Below are positions 8,119-57,675 of a stretch of 64,000 nt of DNA, in pieces. The notes below the pieces were generated by a model, which searched no databases, was not told where the DNA came from, and saw only the letters and a list, made by a program, of their open reading frames with translations. Source of the DNA: a virus. Taxonomy: Duplodnaviria > Heunggongvirae > Uroviricota > Caudoviricetes. The stretch spans positions 186,635-250,634 of the IMG/VR virus record IMGVR_UViG_3300031133_000383, one strand, 5' to 3'. Each line of letters opens with the position of its first letter. Positions within the stretch are counted from its first letter, which is position 1. The translations under genes were made by a program, and so were the position numbers.

Positions 8119-9309
8119 ATGTCTTATCCAATTATTATGCATGGCTCAGAAAACTCTTTGGATGTTGACGCTTATGTCATTATTCCTGAACCTTTGTCAT
8201 TACAAGATGCTAAACGCCTTTGTGACTCTTACAAAGATATTAACGCAAACCTTTTGTCGGTAAAAAATGGCGTCGTTGATTGGTGTTATAAAGGAACAGT
8301 TGATGAATGTAACAATTCAATTCTGGCTACCTATGGCCTTCATAAGCAGAAATTTGATATTCCCGTAGAACATGCATTGCCACGTTCTTACGCATTGAAA
8401 ATGATTAGAACTGTTCGAGGCTTGTTGTCTTATCATTCTCGAACAGAAAAAAGAGAGGATGTTAAAAAAGCACTGCAAACTAACGATATGCTTATGAAAC
8501 TGGATGTACTTTCATCGATTGATTTGAGAAGTGTTGATGACTATCAAAAAACTTCAATTACAGAAACCTATAAGTTTTTTGCATTTCAGTTGGGGCAAAC
8601 AATGGCTTTGCTCAAAGACGGTGTTGAACTTTTTACAAAAAACCAAGTGGGTGAATATTACCCGGAATTGCAAGTCTATCTGCAACGTCAAGAAGGTGTC
8701 GCACCTGATGCCTTACAAGATTTTTGGGCGGGCTTTGCGTCCTATTTGAAAGAAACTGTTCGTAAAGTTGAAAAACATGATTTGTTTGCAACTGACTATC
8801 AAGGTGTTAGAGAAGTATTTGATTGCAAGAAAGAATTTGTTTTGCCACCAGTGGTCGTATTTGATATTGATGGTACATTACTTGATGAAAAACACCGAGC
8901 AGAACATAGAGAGAAGAAAGATTGGGATACTTACTTTGATTTGTGTCATCTGGATACGCCTATTCAACACATTGTCGATTTGACTAAAGAATATCGTAAA
9001 AAGGGATATGAAATTTGGTTGATGAGTGGGCGAGTAGATCGTATTATGGATAAAACTATTCAGTCTATGGTAACATGTGGTGCATGTTACGATCATATCA
9101 AATTACGAAGTCCTGAAAATAGAGTTCCTGATTTTGTAATTAAGCCTTCATGGATCAGTAAGTATATCGGTCTTGAGCGTGTCGAAGCTGTATACGATGA
9201 TACAGATCGAGTAATTGAAGGTTTTCGTAAAAAAGGATTAAATGTCATTGATGTTAAAGAACTCACACCTATACCTGTTCCAGTCAAGAAATCAAAAATG
9301 AAGCCTTGA
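8119..9309 (+). CDS. Two-domain protein: uncharacterised N-terminal domain plus C-terminal HAD-superfamily phosphatase (polynucleotide-kinase-phosphatase-like)
   Basis: ATG 8119 follows AAAAGGAA. The track start at 8077 would include the TTTGCTATAAT promoter. HAD motif I is VVVFDIDGTLLDE, motif II is WLMSGR and motif IV is VYDDTDRV. Confidence 0.6.
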   Translation: MSYPIIMHGSENSLDVDAYVIIPEPLSLQDAKRLCDSYKDINANLLSVKNGVVDWCYKGTVDECNNSILATYGLHKQKFDIPVEHALPRSYALKMIRTVRGLLSYHSRTEKREDVKKALQTNDMLMKLDVLSSIDLRSVDDYQKTSITETYKFFAFQLGQTMALLKDGVELFTKNQVGEYYPELQVYLQRQEGVAPDALQDFWAGFASYLKETVRKVEKHDLFATDYQGVREVFDCKKEFVLPPVVVFDIDGTLLDEKHRAEHREKKDWDTYFDLCHLDTPIQHIVDLTKEYRKKGYEIWLMSGRVDRIMDKTIQSMVTCGACYDHIKLRSPENRVPDFVIKPSWISKYIGLERVEAVYDDTDRVIEGFRKKGLNVIDVKELTPIPVPVKKSKMKP

Positions 9310-22203: not shown

Positions 22204-23364
22204 TTATATTTTCTTGATTATTTTTTGATTGTTTTTATTTAATACATATTCCATCATTCCAGATTCAGCATATTTTTTACTTTCATTTTCGCCTACAACA
22301 ATAATATCAGGAATTCCTTTATTTTTCCAATTTCTTATTTTTTTTCCTAAAGATTCAGAACTTTCATCTAGCTTACATGATTTTTTATCAAATTTTGAAT
22401 GAAGTAGCTTTGCGTAGTCGGATGATTTTTCAGAAACGGGTATGATTACTGATTTTATTGGATGCAAAAAATCTGGTATATCTTTCCCAAAAGATTCCAA
22501 CAAAATACCAATCATTCTTTCTAGAGATCCAAGAACAGCATGATGCAATATAATAGGACGTTGCATTTTATTATCAGAATCAACATATTCAAGTCCAAAT
22601 CTTTCTGGTAATACATAGTCCAACTGTATAACACCCAATTGCCAAGAACGACCTAGTTTATCTTCCACCTGAAGCTCTAGTTTTGGACCATAAAAAGCCC
22701 CCTCTCCCGGCAATTCTTGAAAATCAAGGTTGTTCATGGCACAAGCTTCACGCAAGGCGGCTTCAGCCTTATCCCAAAGACTATCTTCACCAAACCTTTT
22801 TTCTGGTCTGAGAGCAATCGCATATTTTATTTTTTTGAATCCTAGTTCTTCATAGGCTTTCTTGCTCATATTGATATATTGATTAACTGAATTAATGAGA
22901 TTTTCTGGATTAACAAACACATGACTGTCATCCTGACAAAATTGTCGCTGTCTGAACAATACCTGCAAAGCTCCTGATGCTTCATTACGATACACTTCAC
23001 CAAATTCAAAAATGGGTAAAGGTAATTCTTTATAACTACGTTTTTCGGATTGATAAATTAAAATGTGATTTGGACAACTCATAGGACGCAGTGCATAATT
23101 ACTAGCTTCTGATGAATTCAAGAAAAACATGTTTTCTTTATATTTTTCCATATGGCCTGATTGTTCAAATAAATTAGCTACCACAATTGAAGGACTTTTA
23201 ACTTCAAGATAACCATTATCTTCATGATGTTTTCTAATAAAAGATTTTAGATTTTCATAAAGCTTTAATCCTTCTGGTTTCCAATAAACAACACCTGCAC
23301 TTTCACTTAACATGAAAAGATTCATTTCATTTGCCACTTGCATATATCTTTTTTCTTCATTCAT
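22204..23364 (-). CDS. thrS: Threonyl-tRNA synthetase, catalytic plus anticodon-binding domains only (no TGS or editing N-terminus)
   Basis: Class II motifs RPMSCPNHILIYQSEKRSYKELPLPIFEFGEVYRNEASGALQVLFRQRQFCQDDSHVF resemble E. coli ThrRS LKPMNCPGHVQIF...RVRGFTQDDAHIF. ATG 23364 lies 8 nt after AGGAG. The track start at 23469 reads through the attenuator hairpin. Confidence 0.85.
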   Translation of the reverse strand: MNEEKRYMQVANEMNLFMLSESAGVVYWKPEGLKLYENLKSFIRKHHEDNGYLEVKSPSIVVANLFEQSGHMEKYKENMFFLNSSEASNYALRPMSCPNHILIYQSEKRSYKELPLPIFEFGEVYRNEASGALQVLFRQRQFCQDDSHVFVNPENLINSVNQYINMSKKAYEELGFKKIKYAIALRPEKRFGEDSLWDKAEAALREACAMNNLDFQELPGEGAFYGPKLELQVEDKLGRSWQLGVIQLDYVLPERFGLEYVDSDNKMQRPIILHHAVLGSLERMIGILLESFGKDIPDFLHPIKSVIIPVSEKSSDYAKLLHSKFDKKSCKLDESSESLGKKIRNWKNKGIPDIIVVGENESKKYAESGMMEYVLNKNNQKIIKKI

Positions 23365-23411
23365 TTTATTTCTCCTAGATAATTGATTATATTTTATTAA
23401 AATTAAGGCAT

Positions 23412-23437
23412 AAAAAAACCCAGCATTTAGCTGGGTT
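23412..23437 (-). terminator. Attenuator terminator of the thrS leader
   Basis: Minus-strand RNA AACCCAGC-UAAAU-GCUGGGUU followed by U-run (7 consecutive U in total), 47 nt upstream of the thrS ATG. Confidence 0.75.
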
Positions 23438-23459
23438 CTTGGTGTGCAGGTATCAATTA

Positions 23460-23534
23460 TTAACGACAATACCTCACCAGCCCAGCTTCGATCTGAGTTG
23501 TTGTGGTAGTTGTTGTATTCTTGACTATGTGCAT
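23460..23534 (-). CDS. thrS leader peptide MHIVKNTTTTTTTQIEAGLVRYCR (24 codons, 7 consecutive Thr codons)
   Basis: ATG 23534 lies 8 nt after AAGGA. Thr codons ACA ACA ACU ACC ACA ACA ACU map to 23516-23496. Tandem stops UAA UAA. The last codons form the left arm of the antiterminator. Confidence 0.75.
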   Translation of the reverse strand: MHIVKNTTTTTTTQIEAGLVRYCR

Positions 23535-28188: not shown

Positions 28189-28217
28189 TTGATTGTTTGA
28201 AAAATATCTGATACTAT
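28189..28217 (+). promoter_or_regulatory. Putative promoter of the tRNA cluster
   Basis: TTGATT (28189-28194), 17-nt spacer, TACTAT (28212-28217), about 30 nt upstream of the first tRNA. Confidence 0.5.
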
Positions 28218-28247: not shown

Positions 28248-28326
28248 CGGAGTGTAGGTTAGCCCGGCTTATACCGCCTGCTTTGGGAGCAGGATGTCGC
28301 AGGTTCGAATCCTGCCACTCCGACCA
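28248..28326 (+). tRNA. tRNA-Pro (anticodon UGG), CCA encoded
   Basis: Acceptor CGGAGTG/CACTCCG. Anticodon arm CCTGC-TTTGGGA-GCAGG. T-arm GCAGG-TTCGAAT-CCTGC. Ends in ACCA. The D-arm is atypical (3 bp, long loop). Confidence 0.8.
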
Positions 28327-28339
28327 ATTTAATAATAAT

Positions 28340-28417
28340 TGACAGGTAGCTCAGTGGGGAGAGCGGCTCCAAATTTTCGGGAGACGGTCGGGGGTTCAAA
28401 TCCTTCCTTGTCAACCA
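28340..28417 (+). tRNA. tRNA with atypical 9-nt anticodon loop (AAAUUUUCG); isotype undetermined (Lys-UUU or Glu-UUC reading possible)
   Basis: Acceptor TGACAGG/CTTGTCA. D-arm GCTC-AGTGGGGA-GAGC. T-arm GGGGG-TTCAAAT-CCTTC. ACCA encoded. The anticodon stem pairs only as CTCC/GGAG, which leaves 9 loop nucleotides. Confidence 0.6.
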
Positions 28418-28426
28418 TCTTTATAT

Positions 28427-28514
28427 GGAAAAGTGGCAGAGCGGTTGAATGCAACGGTCTTGAAAACCGTCGGGTGTAAAAGCCTCGTGAGTTCGAATCT
28501 CACCTTTTCCGCCA
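28427..28514 (+). tRNA. tRNA-Ser (anticodon UGA), long variable arm, CCA encoded
   Basis: Acceptor GGAAAAG/CTTTTCC. Anticodon arm ACGGT-CTTGAAA-ACCGT. Variable arm present. T-arm GTGAG-TTCGAAT-CTCAC. Ends in GCCA. Confidence 0.88.
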
Positions 28515-28516
28515 GC

Positions 28517-28630
28517 TTCGAAACAACATGGTGAATGGTAGTAGCCAATTAGGTGCAGCGGGGATCGTGCCCCCAAACTAGCTTGGTTCGAATCCAGCAG
28601 TGCATGGTGCAAAACCCAATATGTTTCGAA
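28517..28630 (+). other. tRNA-like element: canonical T-arm but no cloverleaf, enclosed by a 9-bp inverted repeat
   Basis: GCT(T)GG-TTCGAAT-CCAGC T-arm at 28581-28598. GGGG-ATCGTG-CCCC hairpin at 28560-28573. GTGCA/TGCAT pairing. Outer stem TTCGAAACA (28517-28525) / TGTTTCGAA (28622-28630). No acceptor stem or anticodon could be assigned. Confidence 0.35.
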
Positions 28631-28649
28631 CTTGGACAAGGTTCTTCAA

Positions 28650-44096: not shown

Positions 44097-46200
<2,104 letters not shown>

Positions 46201-50523: not shown

Positions 50524-50607
50524 CATATTTGGTAGTAGTTTTTTCTTTACAGATTGTTTGTTTTTTGTTACAATCGCATTATTAAATCAATATCACTAGG
50601 AGTTGTT

Positions 50608-51498
50608 ATGTCAAAAGAAATTCGCTTTAAAACTGAAATTGCCTCACTCGATAAATCTCTTATGAAGCAAGTTTCTGAGAAGCGTTCTCGCAAAGAATTT
50701 AAAGATCTGAAGTCTAAGTCAAATGAAATTGTTTATGTTATCCGGTTCAAATCAAGTGAAAAAGATCTTGCGTTTGAAAAATTGGAGCGTGACGTTGATA
50801 TGACTATTCTTAATAGTTCTCGTGGTGAGACAGTTTATATGGTTATTCATAGTCCCGGTGGTAGTGTAACTGCTTACGCAAACGCAGCACAACAAATTCA
50901 GCGTTTGAAGGCTCACGGACTCAAAGTGATTGCCTATGTTGATGAAGTTGCTGCTTCGGGTGGCTATATGATGGCGTCTGTTTGCGATGAAATTGTAGCA
51001 CAACCTTTTGCTTTTGTAGGGTCCATTGGTGTTGTTTCTCAAGTGCCAATTGTTGAAGAAGCCCTTAATAAAATTGGTGTTGATTACAAAGTATATACAG
51101 CAGGAAAGCTAAAGCGTACAGTTGTGCCAACTAAAACGCCTACTGTAGAAGAAGAAATCAATTATAAAGAAAAATTGAATGATATTCATACTGCCTTTAA
51201 AAACCATGTTCTGAAATATCGTCCTTATGTCAATGCAGATAAATTGATGGAAGGTGACTTCTATATGGCTCAAGATGTAGTGGATGCCCGATTGGTAGAC
51301 TCCATTGGCGATAGTCGTAGTGCCATTCTTGCAGCTTTCAAAAAAGGGACCCATTTGTATGAAGTCAAAACAGAAGCAAAAAAAACAGGTGGCGGTCTTG
51401 TCAGTTTTTTTGGTGTAGACTCAGTTCTGGAAATGGCGATTGGTAAGTTTTTCGACCGTATTGTTTCAATGACACATCCTAACGAAAACATCCGTTAA
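50608..51498 (+). CDS. S49-family serine peptidase (SppA/SohB-like)
   Basis: ATG lies 6 nt after AGGAG. ClpP/crotonase-like core with IHSPGGSV and VAASGGYMMASVCDEIVAQP, typical of peptidase S49. Confidence 0.65.
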   Translation: MSKEIRFKTEIASLDKSLMKQVSEKRSRKEFKDLKSKSNEIVYVIRFKSSEKDLAFEKLERDVDMTILNSSRGETVYMVIHSPGGSVTAYANAAQQIQRLKAHGLKVIAYVDEVAASGGYMMASVCDEIVAQPFAFVGSIGVVSQVPIVEEALNKIGVDYKVYTAGKLKRTVVPTKTPTVEEEINYKEKLNDIHTAFKNHVLKYRPYVNADKLMEGDFYMAQDVVDARLVDSIGDSRSAILAAFKKGTHLYEVKTEAKKTGGGLVSFFGVDSVLEMAIGKFFDRIVSMTHPNENIR

Positions 51499-56415: not shown

Positions 56416-57675
56416 ATGCATATTTTTATTAAAGAACTAAAAGACCGTAATCTTATTTCACAAATGACTGATGAAAATAAAATTTCAATTTTGTTAGACA
56501 AGGGTGTTTCGTTATACTGTGGTTTTGATCCAACGGCTGATTCATTACATGTGGGTAGTTTATTACCACTAATCACCATGCTTCGTTTTAAGCGGGCTGG
56601 TCATCGTGTATTCCCCTTGATTGGTGGAGCAACAGGTATGATTGGTGATCCTAGCTTCAAAGCTCAGGAACGTAGTCTTAATGATGTTGATACTGTAAAT
56701 CGGTTTAAATCAGGTATTGCTGCCCAAATTAAAGCAATTCTTGGGGATGTAGAACTGGTTGACAATCATGATTGGACAGCAAACCTTTCAGTTATTGATT
56801 TTTTGCGAGAAGTAGGGAAACATTTCTCAGTGAACAGTATGTTGAATAAAGAATCTGTACGCAGTCGCTTGGATCGTGATGATCAGGGTATTTCTTTTAC
56901 TGAATTCTCATACCAGTTACTGCAGTCCATGGATTTTCATCATTTGTTTAAATCAAAAGGGTGCCAACTGCAGTTGGGCGGTAGCGATCAGTGGGGAAAC
57001 ATTACGGCAGGCATTGATTTGATCCATCGTAAGGAAGGCAATGATGCTGTGGCAACTGGTTTGACTATGCCATTGTTGGTAAAATCGGACGGTACTAAAT
57101 TTGGTAAAAGTGAAAGTGGTGCAGTATGGCTAGCTCCTGATAAAACTTCGGCTTTTGACTTCTTCCAGTTTTGGTTAAAAGTGGCCGATGCTGATATTCC
57201 AAAGTTTTTCAAGATGCTTTCCTTTAGAAGTATTGAAGATATTGATTGTATCCTCGAAGCTGATAAGAATCGTGTAAAACCAGTAGCTCAACAATTGCTT
57301 GCCGAAGAATTAACTGCTTTGATTCATGGTCAAGACGCATTGGATGCAGTTCTTCGAAATAATCAGGCTTTGTTTGACAACAACTTTGACAGCTTACATG
57401 AAAACGATTTTCACATGTTGGTAAAAAACGGTATGAAGTTGATGAAAACACAGGAAAATAACTTATTAGAACTCCTAGTCGCTTCTGGTTTGTCTAAATC
57501 AAAACGTCAAGGTAGAGAGTTTATTCAAAATGGAGCAGTACAGATTAATGGACGAAAAGTCAAAATTGATGAAAATGACATGAACTCTGCCATTATTGAA
57601 GACTTTAAATTTGGTCAGTTTGCTGTACTGCAACGAGGAAAACGAGAATTTATTCTCATTGAAAAGCCCGCTTGA
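56416..57675 (+). CDS. tyrS: Tyrosyl-tRNA synthetase (bacterial type, with C-terminal S4-like domain)
   Basis: HIGH motif (DSLHVGSLLPL). KMSKS motif (KFGKS). GGSDQWGNI. C-terminal RQGREFIQNGAVQINGRKV. Confidence 0.92.
   Translation: MHIFIKELKDRNLISQMTDENKISILLDKGVSLYCGFDPTADSLHVGSLLPLITMLRFKRAGHRVFPLIGGATGMIGDPSFKAQERSLNDVDTVNRFKSGIAAQIKAILGDVELVDNHDWTANLSVIDFLREVGKHFSVNSMLNKESVRSRLDRDDQGISFTEFSYQLLQSMDFHHLFKSKGCQLQLGGSDQWGNITAGIDLIHRKEGNDAVATGLTMPLLVKSDGTKFGKSESGAVWLAPDKTSAFDFFQFWLKVADADIPKFFKMLSFRSIEDIDCILEADKNRVKPVAQQLLAEELTALIHGQDALDAVLRNNQALFDNNFDSLHENDFHMLVKNGMKLMKTQENNLLELLVASGLSKSKRQGREFIQNGAVQINGRKVKIDENDMNSAIIEDFKFGQFAVLQRGKREFILIEKPA

Follow-up and report, generated by a model that had tools for sequence, protein, structure and literature searches.

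A phage tRNA, probably of the Lys(UUU) type, with a lengthened and fast-evolving anticodon arm

Unusual anticodon arms and the present locus

To our knowledge natural tRNAs almost never depart from an anticodon arm of a 5-bp stem and a 7-nt loop, and the ribosome measures that geometry. Here we analyze a tRNA gene with a longer arm, located at positions 28340-28417 (+) of a 64,000-nt stretch of the tailed-phage record IMGVR_UViG_3300031133_000383 (positions 186,635 to 250,634 of that record; the whole stretch is called the window in the following). The gene comprises 78 nt including the encoded CCA, it is called by ARAGORN and by the Rfam tRNA model RF00005, and orthologs occur in nine loci of relatives. 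We would classify the gene as a variant form of phage tRNA, probably of the Lys-UUU type, with an anticodon arm that is lengthened and evolves fast.

A sixth base pair in the anticodon stem is known from mitochondrial tRNA-Ser of the UCN species and from eukaryotic tRNA-Sec. An extended stem is also documented for mammalian mitochondrial tRNA-Ser, where the AGY species are mentioned (PMC11144196). These tRNAs have in common with the fold predicted for the relatives of our gene that a sixth stem pair is combined with a 7-nt loop in a translation-active class of tRNA. They differ in that they compensate in the D-arm and the connectors or use a dedicated elongation factor, whereas the phage tRNA has standard connectors and a standard D-arm, variable region and T-arm.

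An enlarged loop, as found in the window allele, is shared with frameshift-suppressor tRNAs, whose loops measure 8 to 10 nt, and with the mitochondrial tRNA-Gly of Iphiteon panacea, whose loop probably has 9 nt (PMC5009743). Frameshift suppressors are spontaneous mutants or engineered quadruplet or quintuplet decoders, or they are matched to a shift site. In the present case the orthologs have no four-base anticodon in common, the window yielded no shift sites and the ortholog forms a 7-nt loop. Natural phage tRNAs with a non-standard loop size also appear in the same review as “tRNAs in a phage that has many relatives”, and the passage in question describes them as not known to frameshift (PMC5009743). 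Our tRNA resembles them in being encoded by a phage and in a loop that departs from 7 nt. A primary report of natural 9-nt loops in phage tRNAs was not found among the papers searched.

The third comparison concerns tRNA-Lys as a target of nucleases. The PARIS nuclease AriB cuts E. coli tRNA-Lys in the anticodon stem between positions 40 and 41, and the tRNA-Lys of phage T5 escapes via two substitutions in the stem (PMC12409363). The wobble base of tRNA-Lys is the cutting site of PrrC, and mutations of the anticodon loop have been proposed as a means by which phage tRNAs evade anticodon nucleases of this kind (PMC10264068). The tRNA-Lys(UUU) of T5, the proposed evaders and the window tRNA share the Lys(UUU) type, differences concentrated in the anticodon stem-loop and a kept anticodon, which is the pattern one would expect of an arms race with defense systems that cut tRNAs (PMC12409363; PMC10264068). 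T5, however, carries the point substitutions U39A and A41C in an arm of standard length, whereas in the window tRNA the arm length itself is changed, and the resistance of T5 was shown experimentally while that of the window tRNA is inferred.

With canonical bacterial and phage tRNA-Lys(UUU) the gene shares the class I cloverleaf, the central UUU, A73, a 5-nt variable region with GUC and the presumed supply for AAA codons in an AT-rich phage. It differs from them in an arm that is 2 nt longer in both the window and the relatives, in the absence of A37 and thus of N6-threonylcarbamoyladenosine (t6A), in A32 instead of C32, and in U1-A72 instead of G1-C72. The window allele in addition has no U33 in the conserved register.

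Structure and conservation of the lengthened arm

Read from its sequence, the 5' half of the gene is laid out as TGACAGG / TA / GCTC-AGTGGGGA-GAGC / G and the 3' half as GCTCC-AAATTTTCG-GGAGA / CGGTC / GGGGG-TTCAAAT-CCTTC / CTTGTCA / A / CCA. Standard pairing is found throughout the acceptor stem (7 bp), the D-stem (4 bp) and the T-stem (5 bp). The acceptor end has the pair U1-A72 and A73 as discriminator, the D-arm and T-arm are of standard form, and the variable region measures 5 nt. All nucleotides of the tertiary contacts are present (U8, A14, G18G19, G53-C61, T54-Psi55-C56, A58), and they are invariant between the window and its relatives.

The anticodon arm GCTCC-AAATTTTCG-GGAGA occupies positions 28366-28384 (+) and is delimited by the sequence, the fold, and the comparison of alleles with its pair counts. 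Its stem consists of four Watson-Crick pairs (C28-G42, U29-A41, C30-G40, C31-G39) plus an apposition G27·A43, and its loop AAAUUUUCG measures 9 nt (28371-28379). At the center of the loop lies UUU, the putative anticodon (28374-28376, +), which is called by ARAGORN and is the same in both alleles when these are aligned. A first-pass annotation, made from the sequence of the window, had described a 9-nt loop on a CTCC/GGAG stem with a G-A mismatch, tRNA-like arms and an encoded CCA, and every one of these elements is in place.

The programs are in agreement with this drawing. ARAGORN calls a tRNA-Lys(ttt) with a 9-nt loop and takes gene positions 35-37, i.e. the center of the loop, as the anticodon. 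The Rfam model assigns 43.1 bits to the gene (E = 7.8e-6 for the window), well above its gathering score of 29, and its alignment places 9 loop nucleotides where the model has 7. A canonical arm would have a 5-bp stem and a 7-nt loop in which position 33 is U and position 37 a purine, and the window allele does not conform to it. An alternative stem that would leave a 7-nt loop was not found by RNAfold for this allele, and such a drawing was rejected because the pair U29-A41 fixes the register.

A diverged clade of relatives was reached via the neighboring 365-aa protein, which is 74-76% identical, and contributed nine loci from several samples. In all nine, a tRNA-Pro gene is followed by the ortholog of the long-arm tRNA, and the arm is again 2 nt longer than normal. 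The relatives' allele reads TGAAGGG-TA-GCTC-AGTGGGTA-GAGC-A in its 5' half and GCCTG-CATTTTGGG-CGGGT-ATGTC-GGAGG-TTCAAAT-CCTTC-CTCTTCA-A in its 3' half, the region of the anticodon loop being CAUUUUGGG, and the Rfam scores of the orthologs range from 46.8 to 49.9 bits. Across the nine loci this allele is identical save for one G/A change in the T-stem, while the 3' trailers and the promoter spacers vary. A73 precedes the CCA or the trailer in 12 of 12 copies, and CCA is encoded in two lineages.

Between the window and the relatives' allele four pairs are changed on both sides with pairing kept, two in the acceptor stem (4-69, 5-68) and two in the anticodon stem (29-41, 31-39). In this comparison 97% of the cells are paired, and controls with a slid register yielded 0-1 double-changed pairs. 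No change is seen in U1-A72, G6·U67, A73, the D-arm, the T-loop or the central UUU, and the length of the arm (+2), an A at position 2 of the loop and a G at position 9 are likewise kept.

In its minimum-energy fold the relatives' allele forms a perfect cloverleaf, in which an anticodon stem of 6 bp carries the 7-nt loop A-U-UUU-G-G (−25.6 kcal/mol, 55% of the ensemble), and this loop has U33 and a purine (G) at 37. The two ends of the window's loop, A28371 and G28379, correspond to a C-G pair in the relatives. On the best reading, the anticodon helix is one layer longer than normal, the additional layer being C-G in the relatives and an A·G apposition in the window genome. The expanded loop of the first-pass annotation thus stands for the window allele with its 9 nt, whereas the relatives resolve the same length as a sixth stem pair below a canonical 7-nt loop. 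If A and G appose in the window allele its inner loop is A-A-UUU-U-C; if both are unpaired the loop has 9 nt, and a register U33-UUU is then possible as well within its four consecutive U.

The feature is a genuine, conserved and structurally non-canonical tRNA. An assembly error was ruled out, since the tRNA cluster of an independent ENA assembly (L005) is identical to that of the window, the tRNAs are likewise identical in a near-identical JGI strain (L017; 3 single-nucleotide differences and a 7-nt spacer duplication, none inside the tRNAs), and the additional 2 nt recur in the nine loci of the diverged clade. In a scan of the JGI metagenomes that permitted arm lengths of 18-26 nt only the 22-nt form appeared, and no intermediate of canonical length.

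Further searches found few similar sequences. The INPHARED phages (megablast, blastn) gave just a 53-bp match to the tRNA-Pro and weak, generic tRNA similarity to Synechococcus phages. DNA scans of IMG/VR with the exact arm, with the arm and a free loop, and with any arm 2 nt longer around a central TTT returned nothing but one unrelated interrupted tRNA, and an IMG/VR scan with the neighboring protein returned no relatives. Among the GTDB genomes there was no tRNA with the exact body of the window tRNA.

The paired changes, the near-invariance of the ortholog and the conserved promoter suggest that the long-arm tRNA is a functional, expressed and selectively maintained gene, and that decay, which the first-pass annotation had considered as an option, is unlikely. 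This argument is based on the compensatory changes in the acceptor and anticodon stems, on the kept length, UUU and A73, and on an ortholog that is nearly invariant despite diverged flanks.

One must keep in mind a narrower version of the decay hypothesis, in which the window allele is a recently degenerated copy of the 6-bp/7-nt tRNA, i.e. a young pseudogene here whose ortholog works in the relatives. Both non-standard pairs, G27·A43 and the A·G closing the loop, belong to the window allele, which has only four Watson-Crick pairs in the arm, neither U33 nor a purine at 37 in the conserved register, and a lower Rfam score (43.1 compared to 49.9 bits in the relatives). Other strains with this allele are near-identical to it, so that the constraint on it is not measurable. 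The gene is, however, intact outside the arm, with all 16 other stem pairs, the tertiary nucleotides, the encoded CCA and the promoter, and the few strain differences all lie in spacers and none in tRNAs. Two pairs within the arm differ from the relatives on both sides, so that the arm evolved under a pairing constraint rather than by simple drift, and the run of four U would still offer U33-UUU in a 9-nt loop. Recent decay is thus regarded as quite unlikely.

The distribution of the differences is unusual. The anticodon arm is normally where a tRNA varies least. In the long-arm tRNA it is the most diverged part: 10 of 19 arm positions differ between the alleles (4 of 9 in the loop) compared to 9 of 56 in the rest of the molecule (Fisher p = 0.004). 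The canonical tRNA-Pro(UGG), first in the cluster (28248-28326, +; ARAGORN, Rfam; 7-nt loop), served as internal control: its arm shows 2 of 17 differences between the clades, the loop being the same and a single stem pair having undergone a compensated change, and the divergence of the two arms differs with p = 0.014 (Fisher). The anticodon arm of the tRNA-Ser(UGA), third in the cluster (28427-28514, +; canonical, ARAGORN, Rfam), is 100% identical, even in relatives whose neighboring protein is only 65% and 53% identical. The arm of the long-arm tRNA turns over quickly, while pairing, length and UUU persist. Change concentrated in the anticodon stem-loop with UUU kept is the pattern used here to mark a nuclease-evading phage tRNA, and it is what the two alleles show.

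Proposed decoding, identity and nuclease evasion

We propose, with a probability of roughly 45%, that the gene encodes a triplet decoder of AAA of the Lys(UUU) type whose arm changes to evade nucleases directed against the anticodon arm. According to this proposal the body is that of a generic class I tRNA and the conserved UUU at the center of the loop is what it presents. The tRNA would be transcribed together with its neighbors tRNA-Pro(UGG) and tRNA-Ser(UGA) from a strong promoter of host type, it would be charged with lysine on account of UUU and A73, and AAA would be read as an ordinary triplet. The unusual geometry of the arm and its rapid turnover could then serve to evade host nucleases that cut tRNA-Lys(UUU) in its anticodon loop or stem and thereby disable it, the candidates being of the PrrC/RloC type or the PARIS AriB type.

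Lysine identity is suggested by UUU at the center of the loop together with A73, as A73 and U35 are identity elements of LysRS. UUU, the putative anticodon of the 9-nt loop, is also the only triplet common to both alleles in one register. The codon usage matches: AAA is the most frequent codon (68 per 1000, 80% of Lys) and GAA the third (55 per 1000), as expected from the earlier remark on a genome rich in both, CAA is also frequent, and each of the three clustered tRNAs has an anticodon with U34, matching codons that end in A.

A second isotype, tRNA-Glu(UUC), had been suggested for the gene. UUC is absent from the loop CAUUUUGGG of the ortholog, and neither A73 nor the 5-nt variable region is Glu-like by what is generally known of Glu identity, so this assignment is disfavored. 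A broader form of the idea places the anticodon in a shifted register, counted from the 3' side of the loop, where UUU (Lys) stands in the window and UUG (Gln) in the relatives, the next step giving UUC (Glu) in the window. The conserved U1-A72 fits such a shift, being a hallmark of bacterial tRNA-Gln and tRNA-Asn and an identity element for GatCAB and GlnRS; both alleles have a U at loop position 4 that might take the place of U33, and CAA and GAA are both among the frequent codons. But this would demand a switch of amino-acid identity between orthologs. The discriminator is A73 and not G73, which is typical of Gln, Glu and Asn tRNAs, the D-arm and the 5-nt variable region are unlike those of tRNA-Glu or tRNA-Gln, and UUU alone is shared by both alleles in one register. 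We therefore see little room for a shifted register and rate it as very improbable.

The 9-nt loop had also raised the possibility of a +1 frameshift suppressor or a quadruplet or quintuplet decoder, e.g. UUUU reading AAAA at programmed sites. The loop of the window allele is indeed 9 nt long, A-rich runs are abundant in the genome, and mutant or engineered tRNAs with 8- to 10-nt loops can shift +1, while the sponge mitochondrial tRNA-Gly with its probable 9-nt loop matches a UGGA shift site (PMC5009743). If a four-base anticodon were in use one would expect it to be kept, but any four-base window differs between AAAUUUUCG and CAUUUUGGG (UUUU compared to UUUG at positions 4-7, AUUU compared to UUUU at positions 3-6), leaving only the central UUU conserved, and in the fold of the relatives' allele the 6-bp stem ends in a loop of the normal 7 nt. 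In the 64-kb window 39 pairs of adjacent open reading frames (ORFs) on the same strand were compared, and none looks split by a +1 shift, the open overlaps being only 8-29 nt, and AAAA is so common that an efficient quadruplet reader would presumably do harm. Enlarged loops do not imply non-triplet pairing, and natural cases from phage and yeast mitochondria are not known to frameshift (PMC5009743). The frameshift reading is accordingly unsupported here, and we judge it highly improbable.

A role outside decoding deserves more weight. The gene might specify a tRNA-like RNA that acts as decoy or inhibitor of a nuclease or modification enzyme directed at tRNA-Lys, or that has another tRNA-like role. 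The body and UUU are kept between the alleles but the loop positions 33 and 37 needed for efficient decoding are not, and the absence of A37 excludes t6A. The promoter is conserved and looks strong, and the AriB study raises the possibility that some viral tRNAs inhibit the nuclease when overexpressed (PMC12409363). On the other hand the gene retains the acceptor stem, discriminator and T-arm of a tRNA that can be charged, and in two lineages the encoded CCA too; it lies in an operon with two ordinary decoder tRNAs, and the relatives' loop has a fully canonical form (U33, purine at 37). We consider a non-decoding RNA unlikely, though worth keeping in view.

Related to these two alternatives is the proposal that the lengthened, flexible arm is an adaptation in itself, which either presents UUU in alternative registers, reads four bases at A-rich sites, or serves as a nuclease decoy. 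We regard this as unlikely. If reading in alternative registers or of four bases were true, selection would have maintained a decoder that naturally shifts frame or works in two registers, and a frameshifter or a decoy would each represent a previously undescribed use of tRNA arm geometry in the conflict between virus and host.

Several observations weigh against the proposal of an AAA decoder that evades nucleases. There are two alleles in total and the statistics are accordingly thin, and the closest strain is too similar to the window to measure the constraint on the window allele. The GTDB tRNAs with the same relaxed body (D-arm, variable region, T-arm) are Thr(UGU), Arg(UCU) and Ala(CGC) with standard arms; the body is therefore generic, and the label “Lys” is given by UUU and A73 only. 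Both unpaired cells of the allele comparison sit in the anticodon arm of the window allele, which moreover has A instead of U at 33 in the register that conserves UUU. A sixth stem pair that is not balanced by a shortening elsewhere should displace the anticodon relative to the body of the tRNA.

Position 37 is G in the relatives and U or C, depending on the register, in the window allele. As there is no A37, t6A37 cannot be made, and this modification is considered important for the reading of AAA by tRNA-Lys(UUU) (PMC6103715). Neither an RNA ligase nor LysRS was detected in the 64-kb window. The long-arm tRNA is furthermore absent from the locus in the relatives examined at 65%, 53% and 48% identity of the neighboring protein, which means that it is dispensable there; in the wider set of relatives at 67%, 65%, 59%, 53% and 48% it is either absent at the locus or the contig stops before it. 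Taking both sides together, the Lys(UUU)-type reading remains the most likely. Of the options raised in the first-pass annotation, decay, a Glu identity and frameshifting have lost ground, but its view that the gene would matter in a genome rich in AAA holds.

Cluster, genome setting and meaning

The long-arm tRNA is the middle gene of the three-tRNA cluster. Upstream, a promoter-like site of the sigma-70 type was read from the sequence at 28189-28217 (+), with an A-tract, TTGATT, 17 nt and TG-n-TACTAT; it has 8 of 12 consensus matches and lies below the threshold of the scan. The relatives have an A-tract and TTGACA-N17-TATTAT or TAATAT with variable spacers at the same place, so that a promoter is found in all lineages. 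The best promoter match of the region (TTGACA-18-TATAGT, 11/12) is located on the other strand at 28242-28213 (−), facing away from the three tRNAs and overlapping the −10 region of their own promoter; it could be a divergent promoter or a chance match in AT-rich DNA.

Some side observations concern the tRNAs around the long-arm gene. The tRNA-Pro of the window measures 79 nt, and its D-loop (AGCCCGGCTTATA) is unusually long, exceeding by 2 nt that of the relatives' 77-nt copy (3543-3619, −, of L007). In the clade at 65% identity, the sequence ...ACTCCGAC-TAAATTTAATAT is kept upstream of the tRNA-Ser (L015 6010-6050, −, compared to window 28315-28340). This remnant resembles the 3' end of the tRNA-Pro plus the spacer, which suggests a joint deletion of tRNA-Pro and long-arm tRNA.

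Just 3' of the tRNA-Ser, an element of about 80 nt (28533-28612, +; also at about 5810-5905, −, of L015) lies between the inverted repeats TTCGAAACA (28517-28525) and TGTTTCGAA (28623-28631). It is about 90% conserved with the clade at 65% identity while its flanks are unalignable, and a 2-nt indel between the versions excludes a coding role. It contains a hairpin GGGG-AUCGUG(C/G)-CCCC, whose 7-nt loop resembles an anticodon loop (A-U-CGU-G-N), and a T-arm-like UGG-UUCGAAU-CCA. ARAGORN and Rfam make no call on this element, which from these motifs may be a degenerate or novel tRNA-like RNA.

The interrupted tRNA mentioned above is located in an unrelated phage (L033, IMG/VR UViG_3300031853_000017; 1181-1290, +). 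It consists of a tRNA 5' half (GGGTGGCGTAGCTCAGTTGGTAGAGCGG...) broken after the D-arm, lies upstream of a normal cluster of seven tRNAs and receives no ARAGORN call; it may contain an intron or be disrupted.

The source of the window is a huge, AT-rich tailed phage with a heavy investment in translation. The GC content of the window is 28-35%. It encodes a head maturation protease (50554-51498), a NAD-dependent DNA ligase, SerRS (44106-45389, +) and a bacterial-type TyrRS (56416-57675, +), and there is a weak match to a portal protein. An N-terminally truncated ThrRS (22204-23469, −; TIGR00418, 403.7 compared to a cutoff of 383.65) without TGS and editing domains is conserved beside the three tRNAs in every relative that was examined. 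XacN1 and Xoo-sp13, two jumbo phages of Xanthomonas, have proteins with 45% identity to a 778-aa protein of the window. A giant eukaryotic virus was rejected as source on account of the head maturation protease, the weak portal match, the bacterial-type promoters and TyrRS, and the similarity to Xanthomonas jumbo phages.

The exact TyrRS is found on contigs of up to 604 kb. Syntenic relatives are assembled to 1,917,244 bp (L007, JGI Ga0370506_000001), 1,859,102 bp (L019, Ga0308158_10000001) and 1,851,360 bp (P0123). These lengths of 1.85-1.92 Mb, about three times 604 kb, could reflect concatemers of the assembly or replicons far above any described phage.

Much of the coding content of the window has no recognized family. 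A Pfam family was lacking for 41 of 42 additionally screened ORFs, and between about 30 and 50 kb a long same-strand run of ORFs of about 190-290 aa has no recognizable function. A 410-aa protein (8077-9309, +) combines an N-terminal motif like that of Pol-beta nucleotidyltransferases (HGSENSLDVDAYV) with a PNKP-type HAD 3'-phosphatase domain; judged from these domains, it could be an enzyme for the healing or repair of RNA or tRNA ends. A tRNA repair module like that of T4 was rejected and not used as evidence, as the match to “polynucleotide kinase” is the PNKP-type HAD phosphatase domain without a P-loop and no RNA ligase was found.

With the long-arm tRNA, a lineage of very large phages has kept a departure from the 5-bp/7-nt geometry, accompanied by compensatory changes, and it affects the UUU type of tRNA that is the target of several bacterial defense nucleases. 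As a compact object of 78 nt the gene is testable and relevant to tRNA engineering and to the biology of phage defense. If normal decoding fails, it would be a candidate for a natural frameshifter or nuclease decoy. If AAA is decoded, the bacterial ribosome would tolerate a sixth layer of the anticodon stem without the compensations known from mitochondrial tRNAs or tRNA-Sec, and an altered arm length might represent a new route by which phages escape from anticodon nucleases.

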